Shown piece after piece: positions 21,694 to 35,607 of a stretch of DNA of 51,785 bases. Below the pieces are notes generated by a model. The model did not search any database. It was given only the letters and a program-made list of their open reading frames with translations, and was not told where the DNA came from. The translations under genes and the position numbers were made by a program. Positions within the stretch are counted from its first letter, which is position 1. The number at the start of each line of letters is the position of its first letter. The stretch comes from Minisyncoccota bacterium (lineage in GTDB: Bacteria; Patescibacteriota; Minisyncoccia; Phycocordibacterales; UBA9973), in assembly GCA_031413715.1 (NCBI GenBank), contig JANOFO010000001.1, positions 1 to 51,785 on the forward strand, in the 5' to 3' direction.

Positions 21694-23382
21694 ATGAATA
21701 CAGAGTCCCGAATATGTCAGAACTGTAATAACTCCTTTATAATCGAACAGGTTGATTTTGATCTATATAATAAAATTGGAGTCCCGCCAGCGGATAAATG
21801 TTTTCAATGTCGAATGCAGCACTTGTATGCTTTTCGCAATGAAAGGAGATTATATCGAAGAAACTGCGATTTATGCAGTAAAAGTATGGTCACAATTTAT
21901 TCTCCTAATAAGCCTTTTAAGGTATATTGCCCCTCGTGCTTTTGGAGTGATAATTGGGACGCTAAAGATTACGCACAGGAGTTCGATTTCGCTAAACCTT
22001 TTTTTGAACAGTTTCGCGAGTTGCAGTTAAAAGTACCTCGAATGGCGCTTTTGACTAAAAATAGCGTTAACTCAGAATACACTAATCACTCTGCGGACAA
22101 TAAAAATTGTTACCTATCTTTTGCCACATTTGTGTCTGAGAATGTTCTCTATTCCTCAGATATATGGAATCGCGGGCAAGACGTAATTGATTGCTCTATG
22201 ATAACGGATCAAGCCACTCTCTGTTATGAATGTGTAGATTGCGAAAAGATAAACAGTTGTCAGTATTGTTTCTTGGTCAAAGAATCAAGTGATTGTCTCT
22301 ATTCGTATGATCTTCGAAATTGCAGTGACTGTTTTTTATGCTTCAACCTGCGTAATCAGAAATATTGCATATTGAATCAGCAATATTCAAAAGAAGAATA
22401 TATAAAGAAAATTGAAAAGTATAATCTCGGAGAACGTGGTAATAGAAAGTCATTTTATGAAACATTTTTAGATATTATAAAAAATAAAGCAATACATAAA
22501 GAATCAATCGTAGAACGGTCTGTAAAAAGTACTGGTAACACATTATATAATTGTAAGAATGCATATTACTATTTTGATGCAGAGGATGTTGAAGATTCTC
22601 GCTACTCAGTACAAAGTCCTCATGTAAAAGATTCTATCGACAATTATCATGTTGGCCTGCCGGTTAGTCAGCTTATATATAGTTCGCACGGTATTGTTCG
22701 ATCTACAAATATTACCTGCTGCCATCTTTCATACGACAATACTTTTATGTCTTACTGTGATAGTTGCCACAATAGCAATAATCTTTTTGGTTGTATTTCA
22801 ATCAAGAAAGGTTCGTACTGTATTTTGAATAAGCAATACTCCAAGGAAGAATACGAGCCTCTCCGAGATAAGATGATAGAATATATGAAAACAACAGGGG
22901 AATGGGGTTCGTTTTTCCCAAAAAATATTGCTCCAGTTGCATACAACGAAACTCAAGCTCAGATACATATCCCGCTTTCAAAAAAAGAAGCGTTGTCAGC
23001 TGGTTTTACATGGCAAGATGATTTAAGTGGTACATATGGAAAGGAAACTCTTATCCAAATTCCAAATACTTCAGACGATTCTATCCTCAAAGAAGTTCTT
23101 AAGTGTTTAGAGTGTGCAAAGAATTACAATATAGTTCAAGCTGAGCTTGAGCTATATCAAAGAATGAATATCCCGATACCTGATCGTTGCCCTGATTGTA
23201 GATATGTAGAGAGAATATCTTTACGCCTGCCGTATCGACTCTGGCACAGGCCCTGTACATGCTCCCAAACCAGTCATTTTCACTCGAGGAATCCTTGTCC
23301 AAACGAATTTGAGACGAGTTATGCACCAGATCGGCCTGAGAAGGTCTACTGTGAGCAGTGCTACCAGGCAGAGGTGCTATAA
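21694..23382 (+). CDS. Cys-rich protein, paralogue 1 (terminal CxxC zinc-ribbon motifs)
   Basis: CQNC/CxxC N-terminus, duplicated YCILNxQYSKEEY block, C-terminal CPNEFETSY...YCEQCY. Confidence 0.85.
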   Translation: MNTESRICQNCNNSFIIEQVDFDLYNKIGVPPADKCFQCRMQHLYAFRNERRLYRRNCDLCSKSMVTIYSPNKPFKVYCPSCFWSDNWDAKDYAQEFDFAKPFFEQFRELQLKVPRMALLTKNSVNSEYTNHSADNKNCYLSFATFVSENVLYSSDIWNRGQDVIDCSMITDQATLCYECVDCEKINSCQYCFLVKESSDCLYSYDLRNCSDCFLCFNLRNQKYCILNQQYSKEEYIKKIEKYNLGERGNRKSFYETFLDIIKNKAIHKESIVERSVKSTGNTLYNCKNAYYYFDAEDVEDSRYSVQSPHVKDSIDNYHVGLPVSQLIYSSHGIVRSTNITCCHLSYDNTFMSYCDSCHNSNNLFGCISIKKGSYCILNKQYSKEEYEPLRDKMIEYMKTTGEWGSFFPKNIAPVAYNETQAQIHIPLSKKEALSAGFTWQDDLSGTYGKETLIQIPNTSDDSILKEVLKCLECAKNYNIVQAELELYQRMNIPIPDRCPDCRYVERISLRLPYRLWHRPCTCSQTSHFHSRNPCPNEFETSYAPDRPEKVYCEQCYQAEVL

Positions 23383-27466: not shown

Positions 27467-28033
27467 ATGAAATCCAAATTTATAATTTTTGTTGTTATTG
27501 CAGTATTATTTGTTATTGCCCTTGGAGTTTTTACTAATAAGAGCGGGACAACTGCTCCAAACAAGTATGATGATTTTGCTAAAGCTTTAACGACGCGAGG
27601 TGCTCAGTTTTATGGAGCTTTCTGGTGTCCACATTGTCAGGATCAAAAAGCACTGTTTGGCAGTGCTAAGCAATATTTGCCATACATCGAGTGTTCCAAG
27701 CCTGACCAGACACCGACACAAGTTTGTCTTGATAAAAAAATAGAAAGCTATCCGACATGGATGTTTGCAAATGGTATCAACATAAGTTCAGCTGGTAGTC
27801 CGACTGTTTGTACAGCAAAGCCTGGAGTTCCCGGGGAGGCATCCGTTTGTGCACAAATTTCTTCCCAATATTACAAAACATGGCTTTTCCCGGAATACAA
27901 GTTTTCTATCAAGAGCCCGACAGATCCAATCATGAAAGATGGTATCTGGCAATTTGAGTCAGGCGCTCAAATCCAAGGAGAGGCATCACTCGAATTTCTT
28001 GCAGCTCAGATAGGTTTTACACTTCCAGAATAA
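27467..28033 (+). CDS. Membrane-anchored thioredoxin-fold oxidoreductase
   Basis: N-terminal TM, FYGAFWCPHCQDQK, YIEC, cis-Pro YPTW. Confidence 0.85.
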   Translation: MKSKFIIFVVIAVLFVIALGVFTNKSGTTAPNKYDDFAKALTTRGAQFYGAFWCPHCQDQKALFGSAKQYLPYIECSKPDQTPTQVCLDKKIESYPTWMFANGINISSAGSPTVCTAKPGVPGEASVCAQISSQYYKTWLFPEYKFSIKSPTDPIMKDGIWQFESGAQIQGEASLEFLAAQIGFTLPE

Positions 28034-28034
28034 T

Positions 28035-28586
28035 ATGCCCGCGTACGTAGAAACATTAAACTATATCCTTGCTCTTGGGACTATTGGAACTCAAGTAGCT
28101 ATACTCCTAATCGTAATCAATCTTGTTTTTAATAGATCAGCGAATAATTCCGTACTTAACTTTTTTTATAAGTACGGTTTTTATTTTGCATTTTTTGTTT
28201 CACTTTCGTCACTCGCACTATCTCTGTTTTATTCTGAAGTTTTAGGATATGCTGCTTGTGAACTCTGTATCATCCAGCGATTCTTCATCTATCCGCAAGT
28301 ACTTCTTCTCGGCATAACACTCTTTAAGAAAAAGAAATTATTGATTACACTCAGTGCGGTACTCGCGTTCCTTGGAATGCTTGTCTCTATTTATCACGTA
28401 TACATAGAGAATGGAGGTTCGTCGGGCCTTGCCTGTGCGACTGGTGCTGTTGGGATTGTCACCTGCGCCGCCCGGTATGTTTACGAATTTGGCTACATCA
28501 CTATTCCGGTCATGGCGCTCTCTGCTCAGCTCTTTATTCTCGTTATCTGGAGTAATCATAAATACATATCTCGAAAACTTAGATAG
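28035..28586 (+). CDS. dsbB: DsbB/BdbC-family disulfide bond formation protein
   Basis: CELCIIQR, second Cys pair, GYITIPVMAL; multi-TM. Confidence 0.85.
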   Translation: MPAYVETLNYILALGTIGTQVAILLIVINLVFNRSANNSVLNFFYKYGFYFAFFVSLSSLALSLFYSEVLGYAACELCIIQRFFIYPQVLLLGITLFKKKKLLITLSAVLAFLGMLVSIYHVYIENGGSSGLACATGAVGIVTCAARYVYEFGYITIPVMALSAQLFILVIWSNHKYISRKLR

Positions 28587-28631
28587 CAGACCCTCCTTGT
28601 AAAAGACAAAATCAAGGCGTATCATAATAGT

Positions 28632-29060
28632 ATGCTAGTAGAGAAAATAGATCCAAAAGAAAAGCGCATAGTATTTGTCTACACAACCTGTCCTTCTTTG
28701 GACCAGGCTAGGTCTATGGGCCTTTCGGCTATTAATGAAAAACTTGCAGCCTGCGTGGATTACTGGTCTATCGGCTCTATCTACCCCTGGAACGGCGTTA
28801 TTCAAGACGTCGAGCAATATATGCTCATGCTCACAACCGAGAGAAATGTATCTGAGAAACTTGTAAAGTATATCGGCGGACTTCATCCTTATAGTACTCC
28901 TATGATTGCACGAATGGATACAGCATATATAAATCAAACATACAGTTTCTGGGTAGATAATATATTTAATACTAAAGGAGAATACATATCAGAACTCCAG
29001 GCGGAAGAAGAAGCAATCAGCGAAGCGGAAGACGGATACCACTTTGGCAAACTCAAATAG
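28632..29060 (+). CDS. cutA: Divalent-cation tolerance protein CutA
   Basis: VYTTCP, KLAAC, SIYPWNG, HPYSTP. Confidence 0.9.
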   Translation: MLVEKIDPKEKRIVFVYTTCPSLDQARSMGLSAINEKLAACVDYWSIGSIYPWNGVIQDVEQYMLMLTTERNVSEKLVKYIGGLHPYSTPMIARMDTAYINQTYSFWVDNIFNTKGEYISELQAEEEAISEAEDGYHFGKLK

Positions 29061-30995
29061 TATAATCAGCATAAGCGATCGCTTGCATTGATTATAATCA
29101 TATGAACTCCGAAACAAAAAAATGCCAGAATTGTAAAAATAACTTCACAATAGAACCTGAAGATTTTTCATTTTACGAAAAAATAAAAGTTCCTCCACCG
29201 ACATTTTGCTCAGAGTGTAGATTACAAAGACGATTGGCTTCTTATAATATTCGTACTCTCTATAGGCGAAATTGTACTAAATGTGACAAATCAATAGTGT
29301 CTATATATGCGGGCGATTCTGAATCAAAAGTATACTGTACTGAATGTTATTTTAACGATGATCTGGATCCATTTTCATATGGTAGAGATTATGATTTCTC
29401 TCGTCCATTTTTTGAACAATTTGCCCAATTAAGGAAAGACGTGCCCCAGTTGCATGTAAGACACTCAAACAATAATGGCGAAGGTTGCGAGTACGCGAAT
29501 TCCTCTTCAAACTCTTCCCATGTCTATCTTTCATATGGAGTTGTAGGATCAGAGCATATTTATTATGGGTATCTTATCAATAAAGCCAATCGAATGTGTG
29601 TTGATTGTTTAAATATTAAAAAAAATGAAATAGGGTATGAACTTGTAAATTCAACAGGTAATTTTCAGTGTTCTTACCTGACTGATTCTCTTCAATGTAT
29701 CGATTCGTCTTTTCTATTTAACTGCTTCAATTGTCAGAATTGTTTTATGAGTAGTAATTTGCGTAACAAAATTTATTGTTTCAAGAACGAACAACTTTCA
29801 AAGGAAGAATATCATAAAAAAGTGGCGGAATTAAAAACTGGGAATATTGATAACTTTGAAAATCTTGTGAGTGAATATACTGAAATGCTCATGAAAGCTA
29901 TTCACTGCTATGCAACAATAATAAAATCTGAAGATTGCACAGGGGATATGATAGAGAATTGTAGCAATGTAAAATATTCTTTTAATGTGTGGGGTTGTCA
30001 AAACTTAAAATATACAGCATTTTTAATGAATTTAAATTCAGATTCTTATGATCTAACAGTCTCTGGAAAAGGAGAAAGGACATACGAATTAGTTACGAGT
30101 GGTGGGGGTAATTTTGATTCTAAATTTTGTCATAGGGCACAAGGTGGATCAAATGTAGAGTATAGCGATACCTGTAAAGGGGTAAATAGTTTGTTTGGAT
30201 GTGTTGGAATTCGAAATAAAGATTATTGTATTTTAAATAAACAGTATGCAAAGGAAGAATTTGAGATACTTCGAAAAAAAATCATTGCGCACATGATTGA
30301 AATGCCCTACGTAGATAAAATAGGTAGAACATATGCTTATGGAGAATATTTCCCAATAGAAATTTCTCAAGCGGCTTATAACGAAACCTTAGCAATAGAA
30401 CAATTTCCACTTTCAAAAGAAGAGGCTCTACAGCAAGGGTATAAATGGCGCGATATGATAAATAAAGATCATGAGACTACTATCGATACTACGCAATTAG
30501 AGAAAGATATAAAAGATGTTACAGATGGTATTTTTAAACACACTATTTTGTGTCGACATGAAGGTGTATGTGGTCACCAATGTACAAGGGGATATAGGAT
30601 AATAAAAGAGGAACTTGATTTTTATAGACAAATGAATTTACCTCTTCCAAGATTTTGTCCTAATTGTCGCTATCATGAAAGGTTGAAAAGGAGAAATCCA
30701 TGGAAGCTCTGGAAAAGATCTTGCATGTGTACGCTATTAAATCATACTCATGAAAGCAAGTGTCATAATGAATTTGAAACAGCATATAGCCCAGAGAGTA
30801 AAGTGTTAATTTTTTGTAAAAGTTGTTATCAACAAGAAGTAATCTAATATAATCAACACAAGCGATCGCTTGCATTGATTATAATCATATGAACTCCGAA
30901 ACAAAAAAATGCCAGAATTGTAAAAATAACTTCACAATAGAGCCTGAAGATTTTTCATTTTACGAAAAAATAAAAGTTCCTCCACCGACGTTTTG
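29061..30995 (+). repeat. 148-bp direct repeat (29061-29208, 30848-30995) starting with a 36-bp imperfect palindrome
   Basis: Four mismatches by manual alignment; core AAGCGATCGCTT flanked by TATAATCA/TGATTATA. Confidence 0.92.
29102..30847 (+). CDS. Cys-rich protein, paralogue 2
   Basis: Same architecture as 21694-23382. Confidence 0.85.
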   Translation: MNSETKKCQNCKNNFTIEPEDFSFYEKIKVPPPTFCSECRLQRRLASYNIRTLYRRNCTKCDKSIVSIYAGDSESKVYCTECYFNDDLDPFSYGRDYDFSRPFFEQFAQLRKDVPQLHVRHSNNNGEGCEYANSSSNSSHVYLSYGVVGSEHIYYGYLINKANRMCVDCLNIKKNEIGYELVNSTGNFQCSYLTDSLQCIDSSFLFNCFNCQNCFMSSNLRNKIYCFKNEQLSKEEYHKKVAELKTGNIDNFENLVSEYTEMLMKAIHCYATIIKSEDCTGDMIENCSNVKYSFNVWGCQNLKYTAFLMNLNSDSYDLTVSGKGERTYELVTSGGGNFDSKFCHRAQGGSNVEYSDTCKGVNSLFGCVGIRNKDYCILNKQYAKEEFEILRKKIIAHMIEMPYVDKIGRTYAYGEYFPIEISQAAYNETLAIEQFPLSKEEALQQGYKWRDMINKDHETTIDTTQLEKDIKDVTDGIFKHTILCRHEGVCGHQCTRGYRIIKEELDFYRQMNLPLPRFCPNCRYHERLKRRNPWKLWKRSCMCTLLNHTHESKCHNEFETAYSPESKVLIFCKSCYQQEVI

Positions 30996-32625
30996 TCCGG
31001 AATGCTCGCATCAGCGCCGATTTGCGTGGCGTAATACACATGCACTTTACCATCGAAAAGATTCGATAACCGGAAAAGATATAGTATCGATCTATCATCC
31101 CGATACGAAGATGAATGTCGTAGATCAAAAATATTGGTGGAGTGACGAATGGGATCCTTTTGATTATTCGAGAGAGTATGATTTCTCAAGACCATTTTTC
31201 ACTCAATGGAAAGAATTACGAGATACCATTCCTTTTCAAGCACTTTCTAATTCAAAAGCAGTGAATAGCGAATATTGTAACGTAGCCGAAGAAAGTTATG
31301 ATTGTTACCTTATTTCTGCTTGTTGGAAGAATGAACGTGTAATGTATTCAGATTCAGTACTAGAAGTTAAAGATTCTTCTGATTTATATATAGTTCAAAA
31401 AAGCGAATTTTGTTATGAAGACATGTATTGCACTAATTCGTCAAATATTTTTTATTGTGAACAAACAAACTCTTCTATTGACTCATACTTTCTCTATGAT
31501 TGTCATGGATGTGTAAATTGTTTTATGTCTTCAAATTTACATAATAAAAGTTATATGTTTGAGAATGTACAATATTCAAAAGAAGATTATTTTAAAAAAT
31601 TATCTCAATATAATCTTGGAAGTTATAAAACCATAGAAGTATTAAAAGAACAGTTTAAAATCCTGAAATTAAAATCATTACACAAATACGCTACAATTAT
31701 AAAAAGTAATAATGTAACGGGGGATCATCTAAGTAACGTTGTGGATAGTCAATATATTTTTGATGGATCAAATAATGTTAAAAACTGTAAGTATCTTTTT
31801 TGGGTAACTTATAATATTTTTGATTGTTATTATTGTAATGCAATTGGAATGCTTGAAAATAGTTTTGAAATGAATGACTCTGGAGTAGGAGGATCAAATT
31901 GTAATTTTTCGAGCGTAGTCTACGATTCTAGAAGTATTGAATATTCTTTCAATTGTTATAATAGTAATGATTTATTTGGATGTATTGGCTTGCGTAATAA
32001 ATCTTATTGCATTTTAAATAAACAATATTCAAAAGAAGAATATTTTAAATTATTGCCTAAAATTATAGAACATATGAATAATATGCCATATTTTGACAAA
32101 TTAAAGAGAGTATATAAATATGGTGAATTTTTCCCAATTGAACTTTCTCCATTTGCATATAATGAGACATTAGCCAATAATTTTTTTCCACTCACAAAGG
32201 AACAAATAAAAGAGAAAGGCTTTTTGTATAGAGACAAGGAAGAAAAGCAGTATATGCCAACTTTAACTACTGACAATATTCCAGATCAAATTTCAGACAT
32301 AGAAGATTCGATACTTGATCAGGTTATTTCATGTGATACACTCCCAGACTCAGATCGTTGCACGATAGCTTTTAAGATCATTAAAGATGAGCTTATCTTT
32401 TATAAGAGGTTTAATATACCAATTCCACGACAATGTTACCAATGCCGACACAAAGCTCGGTTTAATAAAAGAACGCCTCTTGAACTCTGGCACAGATCTT
32501 GTATGTGCGATAAAGAAGGTCATGTCCACATGGGGAAGTGTACAAATGAATTTGAAACTAGTTATTCTCCCGAGAGGCCGGAGATTATATACTGTGAAAA
32601 GTGCTATCAAGCAGAAGTCATGTGA
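30889..32625 (+). CDS. Cys-rich protein, paralogue 3
   Basis: Same architecture; first 36 aa identical to paralogue 2. Confidence 0.85.
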   Translation: MNSETKKCQNCKNNFTIEPEDFSFYEKIKVPPPTFCPECSHQRRFAWRNTHALYHRKDSITGKDIVSIYHPDTKMNVVDQKYWWSDEWDPFDYSREYDFSRPFFTQWKELRDTIPFQALSNSKAVNSEYCNVAEESYDCYLISACWKNERVMYSDSVLEVKDSSDLYIVQKSEFCYEDMYCTNSSNIFYCEQTNSSIDSYFLYDCHGCVNCFMSSNLHNKSYMFENVQYSKEDYFKKLSQYNLGSYKTIEVLKEQFKILKLKSLHKYATIIKSNNVTGDHLSNVVDSQYIFDGSNNVKNCKYLFWVTYNIFDCYYCNAIGMLENSFEMNDSGVGGSNCNFSSVVYDSRSIEYSFNCYNSNDLFGCIGLRNKSYCILNKQYSKEEYFKLLPKIIEHMNNMPYFDKLKRVYKYGEFFPIELSPFAYNETLANNFFPLTKEQIKEKGFLYRDKEEKQYMPTLTTDNIPDQISDIEDSILDQVISCDTLPDSDRCTIAFKIIKDELIFYKRFNIPIPRQCYQCRHKARFNKRTPLELWHRSCMCDKEGHVHMGKCTNEFETSYSPERPEIIYCEKCYQAEVM

Positions 32626-32637
32626 TATAATATCCTT

Positions 32638-34392
32638 ATGCATGTTGATGAGAAAAGTATCATAGATCTTCTAAATAGTTCGGGGCTCGTCAGTAAAACT
32701 GATGTGGCCATGGCGCTCAAAAAATCAAAAGAGATGAGCCAATCCATCGGCTCGATACTTGTGAGCGACGGTAAACTCACAGAAAAGGATTGGAATAGTA
32801 TGCAAGCGGTCTCGCTCGGCATTCCTTTTGTGAGTCTAAAAGGCGAGAAGATTGATCCAGAAGTGCTCTTGCTAATACCTGAGCCGATTGCTCGCAACAA
32901 TAATATCATTGCTTACAAGAAGAGTAAGGCTGGCCTCGAAGTGGCTATGCTTGATGTGGACAATCTGTCGGTCATAGACTTTATCAAGAAAAAAGTTGGC
33001 GCAAAGATTCTACCTCGCCTGACAAGCTCGGATTCTATAAAGGAAGCACTTGGTCAATACAAGAAAAGCCTACAAGCTGACTTTGAAGATATCATTAAAA
33101 AAGAGAGTTCTTCCATCAAGCCCGTTTCAGAAGGGGGCACTGGGGAGGAAAAATCAGCAAAAGAACTACAGGCGCTTGCCGAAGATCTACCGATCGTCAA
33201 AATTGTCGATACCCTTATCTCTCACGCGATTCTCCAAGGCGCATCCGATGTCCATATAGAACCAGGGGAGACATCGCTCATAGTCCGATATCGTATTGAC
33301 GGCATTCTCCACGATGCCATGGTCTTGCCGAAAGACACGGCTTCTGGAATAGTTGCTCGTATCAAGGTGCTTTCAAATCTGAAGCTCGACGAGAAAAGAT
33401 TGCCGCAAGACGGACGTTTTAAGATTTCAAATGATGATGGCAATGTATCCTTCCGTGTATCGACACTGCCAACCTATTTCGGAGAGAAGACGGTTATCCG
33501 TATTTTGAGAGAAAACTCTAAAGGATTTTCACTCGAGACACTTGGCTTTCATGGCGAGGCTCTAGAGCGAATTCACGACGGCATGAAACAACGCATCGGA
33601 ATGCTTCTCTGTGCAGGGCCTACTGGTTCGGGTAAGACGACGACACTCTATACAGTCCTCGATATCTTGAATACTCCAGATGTGAACATTTCCACAGTAG
33701 AGGATCCGATCGAGTACCAGATGGCGCGCATCAACCAGACTCAAACAAAAGCAGAAATAGGACTTACATTCGCTAATGGGCTTCGCACACTTCTTCGTCA
33801 GGATCCTGATATCATCATGGTGGGAGAGATCCGTGATGGCGAGACGGCCGGCCTTGCAGTCAATGCTGCGCTCACCGGTCACCTGGTTCTCTCTACAATA
33901 CATACGAACTCAGCAGCTGGAGCGATCCCCCGCATGATAGATATGGGAGTCGAGCCTTTTCTTATCGTCTCAACAGTCAAAACTGTTATCGCCCAGCGCT
34001 TGGTCCGAGTCCTTGCTCCTAATAAAGAGAAATATTTCCTCTCAGATGCTGAGAAGAAATCTCTCGAGAAGCTGATAGATTTGGGTCGCATGCTTGAAAT
34101 ATTAAAGAAAGAAAAAATAGTGCCTAATGATGCCACATGGGCGACGATACCGTTCTATAAACCAGTACCAAACGAAGAATTTGAATCTGGTTACAAGGGC
34201 CGTTTGGGTATACATGAAGTAATGAAAGTGACTTCAACACTTAAAGAACTGATATTGAAGGGCGCGCCAATGGACACAATAGAAAAACAAGCCAAAGAAG
34301 AGGGTATGATGACGATGCTTGAAGACGGTATATTCCTCGCTTGCCAAGGCAGGACTTCCACTGAAGAAGTTTTGCGCGTGGTTTCCGAGTAG
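32638..34392 (+). CDS. pilB: Type IV pilus assembly ATPase PilB/GspE
   Basis: ASDVHIEP, RLPQDGR, GPTGSGKTT, LRQDPDIIMVGEIRD, GHLVLSTIHTN. Confidence 0.95.
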   Translation: MHVDEKSIIDLLNSSGLVSKTDVAMALKKSKEMSQSIGSILVSDGKLTEKDWNSMQAVSLGIPFVSLKGEKIDPEVLLLIPEPIARNNNIIAYKKSKAGLEVAMLDVDNLSVIDFIKKKVGAKILPRLTSSDSIKEALGQYKKSLQADFEDIIKKESSSIKPVSEGGTGEEKSAKELQALAEDLPIVKIVDTLISHAILQGASDVHIEPGETSLIVRYRIDGILHDAMVLPKDTASGIVARIKVLSNLKLDEKRLPQDGRFKISNDDGNVSFRVSTLPTYFGEKTVIRILRENSKGFSLETLGFHGEALERIHDGMKQRIGMLLCAGPTGSGKTTTLYTVLDILNTPDVNISTVEDPIEYQMARINQTQTKAEIGLTFANGLRTLLRQDPDIIMVGEIRDGETAGLAVNAALTGHLVLSTIHTNSAAGAIPRMIDMGVEPFLIVSTVKTVIAQRLVRVLAPNKEKYFLSDAEKKSLEKLIDLGRMLEILKKEKIVPNDATWATIPFYKPVPNEEFESGYKGRLGIHEVMKVTSTLKELILKGAPMDTIEKQAKEEGMMTMLEDGIFLACQGRTSTEEVLRVVSE

Positions 34393-34395
34393 ATT

Positions 34396-35607
34396 ATGAA
34401 ATTTAAATACAAAACACAAACAAAAGATCGAGGTATCATTGAAGGTATAAAAGAATCACCTGACAAATTTACGCTTGCCCGCGAGCTTCGAGATCAAGGC
34501 GACATACCCCTGTCTATAGTGGAAGCTAGTGATAAAAAAAAGTTTTCTCTGAAAATAAATTTGTTCAGTCATGTTTCTCTCAGGGAGAAGATAGTATTTA
34601 CCAATAACCTTGGCGGCATGCTCACTGCAGGTCTGTCTTTGACTCGCGCACTCTCTATCTTGGAAAAGCAAACCAAGAATCCCTCGCTTACAAAAGTCCT
34701 CACAAGCATCATCGATGATATCAATCGCGGTAATACCTTATCAGATGGGATGAAGAAGTTTCCCAAAGTATTCTCTGGACTCTTTGTCTCCATGGTCCAT
34801 TCTGGCGAAGAATCCGGGGGATTACCGCAAGCACTTTCTGAGGTTGGGCTTAACCTAAAGAAATCGTACGACTTAAACAAGAAAATCAAAGGAGCCCTCA
34901 TGTATCCGTCAATTATCCTAGTCGCTATTTTCTTGATTGGAATACTTATGATGATATTTGTTGTACCAACGCTAACAAAAACATTTAAAGATCTAGGAGG
35001 AGAACTTCCTAGTTCTACCAAGTTCGTCATTTGGCTCTCGGACACAATAAGTCAGCATACGCTTCTTTTCCTATTTGTTATCGGATGTATTGTTGGCTTC
35101 TTTGTACTTTTTGCTAGACTTGAGATTACCCGTAAATATTTTGATTACATAGTTTTACGCTTACCTATCGTCGGTGGGATTGCCAAGGAGGTCAACACTG
35201 CTCGTACTGCTCGAACGCTATCCTCACTCCTCTCCTCGGGAGTCAATCTCTCTCGAGCTCTTAACATAACCGAGGAAGTTCTCCAAAATCTTTATTATAA
35301 AAGGCTGATTCGCCAAGCGATTGTATCAATTGAGAAAGGATCCGCCCTTTCAGCATCTTTCAAAGGCGATACCTTTCTTTATCCTGTCATGATGGGGGAG
35401 ATGATCGAGGTGGGCGAAGAAACGGGAAATCTCTCCAAAATGCTTCTTGATATTGCAGTATTTTATGAATCCGAAGTCGATAACAAGACAAAAGATCTCT
35501 CTACTATCATAGAGCCTGTACTTATGGTTTTCATCGGTGGGGCTGTTGGATTCTTCGCTGTCTCGATGATCTCGCCTATGTATTCGGTTATGAACGCTAT
35601 CAAATAA
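34396..35607 (+). CDS. pilC: Type IV pilus platform protein PilC/GspF
   Basis: GEESGGL, ALMYP, GEETGNL, IIEP. Confidence 0.95.
   Translation: MKFKYKTQTKDRGIIEGIKESPDKFTLARELRDQGDIPLSIVEASDKKKFSLKINLFSHVSLREKIVFTNNLGGMLTAGLSLTRALSILEKQTKNPSLTKVLTSIIDDINRGNTLSDGMKKFPKVFSGLFVSMVHSGEESGGLPQALSEVGLNLKKSYDLNKKIKGALMYPSIILVAIFLIGILMMIFVVPTLTKTFKDLGGELPSSTKFVIWLSDTISQHTLLFLFVIGCIVGFFVLFARLEITRKYFDYIVLRLPIVGGIAKEVNTARTARTLSSLLSSGVNLSRALNITEEVLQNLYYKRLIRQAIVSIEKGSALSASFKGDTFLYPVMMGEMIEVGEETGNLSKMLLDIAVFYESEVDNKTKDLSTIIEPVLMVFIGGAVGFFAVSMISPMYSVMNAIK

Follow-up and report, generated by a model that had tools for sequence, protein, structure and literature searches.

A shared palindrome-led head in two divergent Cys-rich paralogues of a Minisyncoccota bacterium and a candidate mini-PaaX operator

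PaaX is a GntR-type repressor with a central domain that corresponds to the Pfam family PaaX_M, and the outer-membrane genes of Helicobacter, paralogue families with conserved ends, provide an example of partial gene conversion. Cysteine-rich paralogues of H. pylori are the subject of PMC3608669. Here we describe a locus that touches on both themes, located in a 51,785-nt stretch of DNA from a Minisyncoccota bacterium (GenBank assembly GCA_031413715.1, contig JANOFO010000001.1, positions 1 to 51,785 of the forward strand). Two divergent Cys-rich paralogues, termed genes A and B, lie in tandem in this stretch and share a near-identical 148-bp head that begins with a 36-bp palindrome. The whole stretch is referred to as the window (contig C1 of the genome), and coordinates without a contig name refer to it.

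We propose that gene A is an insertion into a conserved gene junction, that the heads of A and B have recently undergone recombination, and that the palindrome is an operator-type recognition site for a small protein, mini-PaaX, which combines a winged helix-turn-helix (wHTH) with a Cas2-like domain. Taken as a whole, we consider this explanation to be moderately probable.

The shared head and the insertion of gene A

The features of the locus and of the related gene upstream are as follows.

29102..30847, + strand: gene A, 581 aa, a member of a Cys-rich zinc-finger/beta-solenoid family and a lineage-specific insertion
30889..32625, + strand: gene B, 578 aa, the paralogue resident at the cutA-pilB locus and conserved there
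21694..23382, + strand: paralogue 1, same family, without the palindrome and without the shared head
29061..29208, + strand: head copy 1, comprising the spacer and the first 36 codons of A, 144/148 identical to copy 2
30848..30995, + strand: head copy 2, comprising the spacer and the first 36 codons of B
28632..29060, + strand: cutA (CutA1 family; Pfam CutA1, 6.7e-22), which directly precedes B in relatives
Right neighbour of B: pilB (Pfam T2SSE, 6.5e-121)
32623..32640, + strand: leaderless-type promoter of pilB, TGATATAAT-N6-ATG directly after the stop codon of B, the conserved right border of the locus

The identity pattern is directly observed. In an ungapped comparison that starts at the first palindrome base, 29061-29208 and 30848-30995 are identical at 144 of 148 bases, with a start-to-start distance from A to B of 1787 nt, and the four mismatches are at window positions 29069, 29072, 29155, and 29203. 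Two of them fall within the left N4 of the palindrome and the other two are synonymous third positions (GAA/GAG and ACA/ACG), so residues 1-36 of the two proteins are identical. Both intergenic gaps are 41 nt (29061-29101 and 30848-30888), lie directly 3' of a stop codon (TAG at 29058-60 and TAA at 30845-47), and have the layout TATAATCA-N4-AAGCGATCGCTT-GCAT-TGATTATA-ATCAT-ATG, in which the left N4 reads GCAT before A and ACAC before B. Outside the 148 bp, the two copies agree at 25% of positions in the preceding 60 nt and at 48% in the following 148 nt. The initial annotation had described these 41-bp gaps after the stop, their common palindrome layout, and about 36 near-identical codons with four mismatches in total before identity collapses, and every one of these points is confirmed here. 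It had also stated correctly that paralogue 1 lacks the head, as its first 36 codons are 60% identical to those of A at the nucleotide level and no palindrome lies upstream.

A chance origin of the head identity is excluded, as the probability of at least 105 of 107 coding bases being identical is 2e-12 (binomial) at the head identity of 0.73 typical of other paralogue pairs. The identity extends to synonymous sites, with a third-codon-position identity between A and B of 0.92 in codons 1-36 compared to a body mean of 0.43. The head encodes the first half of an N-terminal CxxC...CxxC zinc finger, and residues typical of each lineage return at codons 37-40, where A and its orthologues have CRLQRRLASYN and B and its orthologues have CSHQRRFAWRN. 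Judged from these sequences, the homogenised part of A and B appears to comprise the spacer and the first 36 codons only.

The genes themselves are much older than their common head. The A and B proteins are about 45% identical, and orthologues in the protein database are 69-73% identical to A and 70-76% identical to B, which bears out the earlier view that the pair is not a simple recent duplication. Of 92 other genomes of the genus, 10 contain orthologues of B (59-76%), and seven such loci were compared for synteny. B is syntenic between cutA/dsbB and pilB in six of the seven. Three species (G102, G075, and G046) have the order trx-dsbB-cutA-B-pilB-pilC with a single nucleotide between the stop codon of cutA and the ATG of B, and the B-pilB junction with its TGATATAAT-type promoter is found again in G102 and G046 and, as a TATACT variant, in G075. 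Two others (G024 and G072) have a single family gene that is placed before cutA, B alone is seen on the contig of G053, and the closest relative, G076, contains two further paralogues, X1 and X2, between cutA and B, neither of which has an orthologue among the family copies of the present genome. A is absent at the orthologous site in six relatives. No orthologue of A was found in 60 genomes of the genus, where the best A-like match is 52-53%, or in 400 genomes of the order at E<=1e-215, and a related-locus search in a collection of genome contigs gave relatives of 29-44% only, which are useless for synteny.

Given the 1-nt cutA-B junction of the relatives, the segment 29061-30888, consisting of spacer, A, and spacer, is a lineage-specific insertion. 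The slot between cutA and B is filled by different paralogues in different species. The comparison of array content among relatives that had been suggested earlier shows that content differs between species and that A entered a conserved cutA-B-pilB arrangement, and the opposite pattern, a fixed two-gene arrangement with uniform divergence, was looked for and is not seen in the compared loci. The wider neighbourhood of thioredoxin-like gene, dsbB, cutA, one Cys-rich gene, pilB, and pilC (window 27467-35607; loci L053-L058) is shared by at least six species within the genus, and a second cutA paralogue is located inside a Cys-rich array on contig C9 (C9:93738-94031). This neighbourhood hints that the Cys-rich family is linked to thiol or metal handling and to the genes of the type IV pilus.

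The Cys-rich family is itself very large. More than 6000 of 8000 scored candidates were significant in each of two database searches, and the named homologues of A belong to Paceibacterota, Nomurabacteria, and further Patescibacteria. The present genome (839 kb, 40% G+C, 12 contigs) contains 14 copies of 29-51% mutual identity, which occupy about 3% of it. No functional name is found among the database members, Pfam and NCBIfam give nothing at threshold for A, B, or paralogue 1, and the Pfam models zf_Tbcl and zf_Tbcl_2 do not match A or B at E<=10, while two homologues (P0017 and P0011) score 15.5-26.2 bits against treble-clef models at both ends and so fall short of the cut-offs (24-27). The structure predicted for A by AlphaFold2 (pLDDT 84, pTM 0.87) shows small zinc-finger-like modules at both ends of a beta-strand-rich central block. 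A Foldseek search of the PDB with this model returned only weak left-handed beta-helix rows (best E 0.075), and the accompanying profile and sequence searches of the PDB gave no match. Each paralogue also contains an internal duplication about 150 codons apart, with the motif ...LFGC...YCILNKQYSKEEY, from which the central solenoid can be described as two repeated modules:

29759-29830 and 30185-30260: internal repeats of A
31537-31608 and 31966-32061: internal repeats of B
22324-22419 and 22777-22852: internal repeats of paralogue 1

The G+C content of A and B is low in both cases (31-33%), and likewise in the orthologue of B, hence G+C is no marker of a foreign origin for A.

The A-B head is also not an isolated case. 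Among 60 family genes from six genomes of the genus, with the head taken as the 87-nt Cys-to-Cys segment, the nearest neighbour is in the same genome for 27 of 60 heads compared to 6 of 60 bodies, where 10.5 are expected by chance. A-B ranks first of the 311 within-genome pairs of the six genomes, and the next two come from the G076 array at the orthologous site, in which three pairs have a first-window third-position identity of 0.67-0.78 against body means of 0.39-0.45. The identical-codon fraction of the head is 0.63 in adjacent pairs and 0.54 in others (p=7e-4), and the excess of head over body is 0.10 and 0.02, respectively (Mann-Whitney p=0.01), where both p-values are rough as the pairs are non-independent. 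Ahead of the first cysteine, the residues are in part typical of the genome they come from. We conclude from these comparisons that the family probably undergoes recurrent recombination confined to the 5' end and that A-B would be its most recent product, and phylogenies of the family proteins must allow for such head-limited concerted evolution. Elsewhere in the genome, the Cys-rich pair C11c-C11d has an 86-nt head common to both genes at 89.5% identity.

The dispersed palindrome and its candidate regulator

The palindrome is not private to the A-B locus. The genome-wide search that had been recommended for it finds a dispersed element of eight copies, seven from a pattern search that gave no site for the reversed control and an eighth, degenerate copy from a profile search. 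Two copies bracket a mini-PaaX gene, and six are solo copies, of which four adjoin genes of the Cys-rich family, although the three upstream ones may be non-independent:

29061..29096, no strand: palindrome copy 1, solo, before A; TATAATCA GCAT AAGCGATCGCTT GCAT TGATTATA; RNA hairpin of -11.9 kcal/mol, weakened by a 2x2 internal loop
30848..30883, no strand: palindrome copy 2, solo, before B; TATAATCA ACAC AAGCGATCGCTT GCAT TGATTATA; hairpin of -14.2 kcal/mol
Contig C10: solo copy between ruvX and the start of C10:4351-6099 (C10a), the closest paralogue of A (52% identity)
C11:86211: solo copy, a perfect one, after the Cys-rich gene C11d
Contig C7: solo copy 42 nt upstream of grpE, beyond the rpsI terminator
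Upstream of ruvA-mutM: solo copy at 45 nt, with a canonical TATAAT-N6-ATG between
C11:79992-80026: copy overlapping the start codon of the mini-PaaX gene
C11:80019-80498: mini-PaaX gene, 159 aa; PaaX_M (Cas2-like), 2.8e-14, 53.4 bits, cut-off 24
C11:80508-80543: copy 10 nt after the stop codon of the mini-PaaX gene

Within the window the 12-nt core occurs twice compared to an expectation of 0.21, and 5 of 100 shuffles reach two. The palindrome was not found in the genomes of 40 relatives, and the exact sequence has no match in the Joint Genome Institute (JGI) metagenomes, where a looser pattern gave two matches, one apparently in coding-like sequence and one in an unrelated-looking hairpin. 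The closest relative, G076, lacks such a palindrome and has a dispersed heptamer of its own, AATTACG/AATTACT (54 matches compared to one in the control), which lies, among other places, in the spacers of its Cys-rich arrays (L052, on G076:C11) and as an inverted pair between B and pilB.

That this dispersed motif is built of conserved blocks is plain from its 16 half-sites. Mismatches to the consensus number 8 of 128 in the arms and 5 of 96 in the core, compared to 33 of 64 in the 4-nt spacers (Fisher 1e-15), and seven of the eight arm mismatches are at the outermost base. Conserved blocks next to freely varying spacers point to sequence-specific recognition rather than to neutral repeat decay or to a requirement for pairing alone. 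Sites for Fur/Zur/PerR, CIRCE, LexA, parS, DNA-uptake sequences, and CRISPR repeats were dropped by comparison with their consensus sequences, as motif, copy number, or spacing do not fit.

The candidate for such recognition is the mini-PaaX protein encoded at C11:80019-80498, and the bracketing of its gene by two copies of the palindrome is an observation in its own right. At E<=1 the protein matches PaaX_M, CRISPR_Cas2, and, weakly at its N-terminus, a winged-helix model (CggR_N), while neither the N-terminal PaaX wHTH nor the PaaX_C domain of a full-length PaaX is found at that level, and it has no sequence relative in the PDB at E<=1. The genome contains three more mini-PaaX genes, and each of them has a different palindrome that is built alike and is present on both sides in two cases and upstream only in one. 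These palindromes are specific to the paralogue, with CGATCG, CCATGG, or CTATAG centres, and have a few solo copies elsewhere. In other species of the genus, matching palindromes are present on both sides at 12 of 24 mini-PaaX loci and on one side at 6 of 24, and a 71% identical mini-PaaX orthologue in G024 is accompanied by a palindrome variant that has changed mainly in symmetric pairs. The distances of the solo copies from grpE and ruvA (42 and 45 nt) are typical of cassette operators. Taken together, the conserved blocks and the bracketing of a wHTH plus Cas2-like gene lend support to the operator that the initial annotation had offered as one of two possibilities, and we regard an operator as the most likely reading of the palindrome on these sequence grounds. 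Binding and regulation by mini-PaaX are what we infer from this arrangement.

The sequence context of the sites is relevant to how such a regulator would act. Among the 498 long open reading frames (ORFs) of the genome, 20 have TATAAT exactly 12 nt before the ATG and 40 have TAnAAT, and no enrichment of the Shine-Dalgarno motifs GGAG, AGGA, or GAGG is found upstream, hence most mRNAs are probably leaderless. A site that overlaps the start of a gene or lies just upstream of it is the place where a repressor would act. A promoter scan pairs the left-arm TATAAT of copy 2 with a -35-like TTATCA and finds no such partner for copy 1.

Several related elements were seen elsewhere. The palindrome under study (type 1) delimits a 6.3-kb segment, C11:79992-86246, that contains mini-PaaX, a convergent TrmB-family regulator, a 389-aa gene, and C11c-C11d. 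Mini-PaaX genes are multi-copy across the genus, with up to 12 matches in G078, and among the matches listed about 15 lie within 500 nt of a contig end and may sit in repeated or strain-variable DNA. A sister palindrome (type 5), TATACTCA..ACGATCGT..TGAGTATA, has three copies (C9:114400-114435, C4:10115-10150, and C9:99055-99090), and no cognate gene was found for it. Its first two copies lie in frame inside miaA and a gene for an M24 peptidase, respectively, both essential-looking; the idea that they are 12-codon insertions was rejected, as alignments with orthologues show no length change. The miaA gene of G021 has a different, CGATCG-centred palindrome at the same place, and that of G058 has a CCATGG type elsewhere. 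In G058 a solo CCATGG palindrome (G058:C4:32148-32173; L142) lies 6 nt after an ORF that reads like uvrA and inside the first codons of a uvrC-like ORF. Along with ruvA-mutM and grpE in the present genome, these uvrA/uvrC-like neighbours suggest that repair and stress genes recur next to solo sites.

The proposed explanation and its rivals

We propose that A, with a 41-nt palindrome-bearing spacer on each side, entered the 1-nt gap between cutA and B, and that the 148-bp near-identity would be a recent product of homologous recombination, the youngest case of a recurrent homogenisation of 5' heads. Two routes could lead to this arrangement. A palindrome-A-palindrome segment may have been inserted, followed by a conversion tract that began in the spacer common to both genes and extended over 107 nt of the homeologous head, or a spacer-head-A molecule may have integrated by a single crossover in the pre-existing spacer-head of B, in which case the crossover segment would have been left duplicated. 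The order and direction of these events are our reading of the arrangement. The palindrome would be the recognition site of the mini-PaaX protein whose own gene it brackets, and A and B would then most likely both be under this predicted regulator, which could occlude the promoter or act as a roadblock to transcription that reads through from cutA. Copies of the palindrome may also have provided part of the homology for recombination.

A number of points weigh against this explanation. The homology on the left side consists of the 41-nt spacer only, while conversion usually needs homology on both sides, and this limit makes the conversion and crossover routes indistinguishable. The A-type and B-type orthologues have heads so similar that the shared head can be assigned to neither lineage, and the identity of the head to B orthologues (0.77) is barely above the paralogue baseline of 0.72-0.73. 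The TATAAT near the starts of A and B begins at -9 and not at the genome-canonical -12, the link between regulator and palindrome is one of adjacency, and no solo palindromes of another type were seen beside Cys-rich genes in five relatives. The copies at C11:80508 and C11:86211 are located between convergent genes, where only a terminator-like role is sensible, and four copies fold to very stable hairpins of -20 to -31 kcal/mol, values reached by copies in terminator-like positions, thus a role at the RNA level is possible for some copies. The strain is also represented by one assembly, with a cluster size of 1 in the database searches.

A first rival has A arrive by recombination at the palindromes themselves. 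If the copies marked recombination sites, either a palindrome-A-palindrome unit or a 1787-bp head-head circle could move between them, and such cassette mobility would fit with A being bracketed by two copies exactly like the mini-PaaX gene, with an insertion that fills precisely the cutA|B junction, with a slot that holds 0, 1, or 2 unrelated paralogues depending on the species, and with the third copy between ruvX and C10:4351-6099. We nevertheless consider it unlikely, while allowing it a real chance, since no recombinase is encoded in or near the array, the only tyrosine recombinase of the genome (PF00589, C11:68056) is on another contig, a Y1 transposase is absent, duplication of 107 nt of coding sequence is not expected from site-specific insertion, the genome shows neither a second copy of A nor an empty donor site, and the G076 array lacks such palindromes. 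Of the initial suggestion that a gene body entered by recombination at a constant head, the insertion of A stands, and cassette stacking by a dedicated recombination system, for which the window encodes no integrase, is unlikely. An even smaller chance is given to the palindrome being a REP-like (repetitive extragenic palindromic) or terminator-like RNA hairpin that has no dedicated DNA-binding protein and is present before A and B incidentally to the duplication. In five of the eight copies the distance from the preceding stop codon is 0-10 nt, two copies are located between convergent genes, C11:86211 has the A-tract and T-tract flanks typical of terminators in this genome, and spacer pairing is kept in four of eight copies at 3-4 of 4 pairs. 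Such a hairpin would leave unexplained the invariant arms and core beside freely varying spacers and the presence of an individual palindrome at each of four mini-PaaX genes, and the C7 copy adjoins a separate canonical terminator. The copies before A, B, and C10a form the weakest hairpins (-9 to -14 kcal/mol). In addition, ATCATATG directly follows both window copies with no U-run, T-tract flanks being confined to C11:86211, the scan for intrinsic terminators picks up nothing but the inner 5-bp stem of copy 2, which has a poor tail, and Rfam gives no match at threshold, the one sub-threshold match being to speF at 16.5 bits against a gathering score of 37.

The two remaining explanations deny that the head is a product of recombination in the cell. 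A metagenome-type assembly of 12 contigs, with no second assembly of these exact proteins, could in principle have created the tandem, or one of its heads, if reads from strain variants were wrongly joined at a repeat common to them. This is very improbable, as the head copies differ at four positions and both genes are intact, B keeps the conserved pilB junction on the right and cutA its position on the left, and a 148-bp repeat whose flanks differ would show up as a branch in the assembly graph rather than as a tandem join. Selection on the nucleotide sequence of the head, whether for an RNA structure or an extended operator, could be argued from the fact that no protein segment of the family is more conserved than the one encoded by the head. 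This we find the hardest of all to credit, as other paralogues, including the palindrome-led C10a, have heads that are 72-73% identical with third-position identities of 0.47-0.50, and the head of the B orthologue is 77% identical to that of B.

Returning to the insertion and head recombination that we propose, excision of the 1787-bp unit, as raised in the initial annotation, is plausible given 148-bp direct repeats that are 97% identical. A bolder extension would treat pairs of palindromes as portable brackets, such that the gene between them (the regulator, A, or the C11 island that ends with C11c-C11d) loops out and re-inserts at another copy by homologous recombination, which together with the conserved 5' head would provide these ultra-small bacteria with a RecA-driven, integrase-free cassette system that shuffles the 14-copy family between regulated slots. 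We regard this as a long shot.

Comparison with known systems

In the Patescibacteria, genomes are tiny, genetics is not available, and hardly any regulators are known, and the present locus joins a huge uncharacterised family, a visible and datable recombination event that alters array content, and a candidate regulator-operator pair. The targets of the candidate regulator would be few: three Cys-rich genes, grpE, ruvA-mutM, and its own gene.

Among the systems that the locus resembles, integron cassettes with attC sites likewise consist of co-oriented genes, each with an imperfect palindrome, in arrays whose content varies between relatives. No integron integrase lies beside the array, where the neighbours are RNR, trx, dsbB, cutA, pilB, and pilC, and the palindrome here is symmetric, precedes the genes, and is of the same type as dispersed operator-like sites outside the array. 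In addition, the duplicated segment includes coding sequence, which argues for homologous rather than site-specific recombination. The REP/RAYT systems and the Rickettsia palindromic elements are similar in being short, dispersed, extragenic palindromes, often located just after stop codons, and the in-frame position of the sister type in two genes adds to the likeness. However, the palindrome here has only eight copies, with conserved blocks and variable spacers and no length change at the intragenic sites, and the Y1/RAYT transposase family PF01797 has no match in this genome, where the same search as a control was positive in 6 of 14 reference genomes.

Gene conversion between tandem paralogues is a closer parallel, in that near-identity is sharply bounded, includes synonymous sites, and lies inside paralogues that are older than the tract, as observed for A and B, and in that the effect is recurrent and stronger between neighbours. 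The locus differs from conversion of the Helicobacter type in that only the 5' ~110 nt and the upstream spacer are homogenised, rather than both ends or a central cassette, and in that the tract adjoins a palindrome that we read as a protein site. Moreover, the A/B family is intracellular-looking and has no assigned function, hence antigenic variation is not implied.

With respect to regulation, the nearest system is PaaX, from which the candidate regulator differs as a small protein that contains PaaX_M and lacks the N-terminal and C-terminal Pfam domains of PaaX. A literature search for PaaX with Cas2-like proteins found no paper on such palindrome-bracketed cassettes. Like other mini-PaaX loci of the genus, the C11 locus has a bracketed PaaX_M-domain gene, here with a palindrome of conserved dyad-symmetric blocks and non-conserved spacers. 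It is set apart by the six copies of this type that occur as solo sites away from the cassette. Four of them adjoin a single Cys-rich family, and two of these four flank an inserted paralogue and share in the 148-bp duplication. What appears to be new is therefore the combination, in which putative solo operators before members of one expanding family occur together with a bracketed insertion and with family-wide, head-limited concerted evolution.

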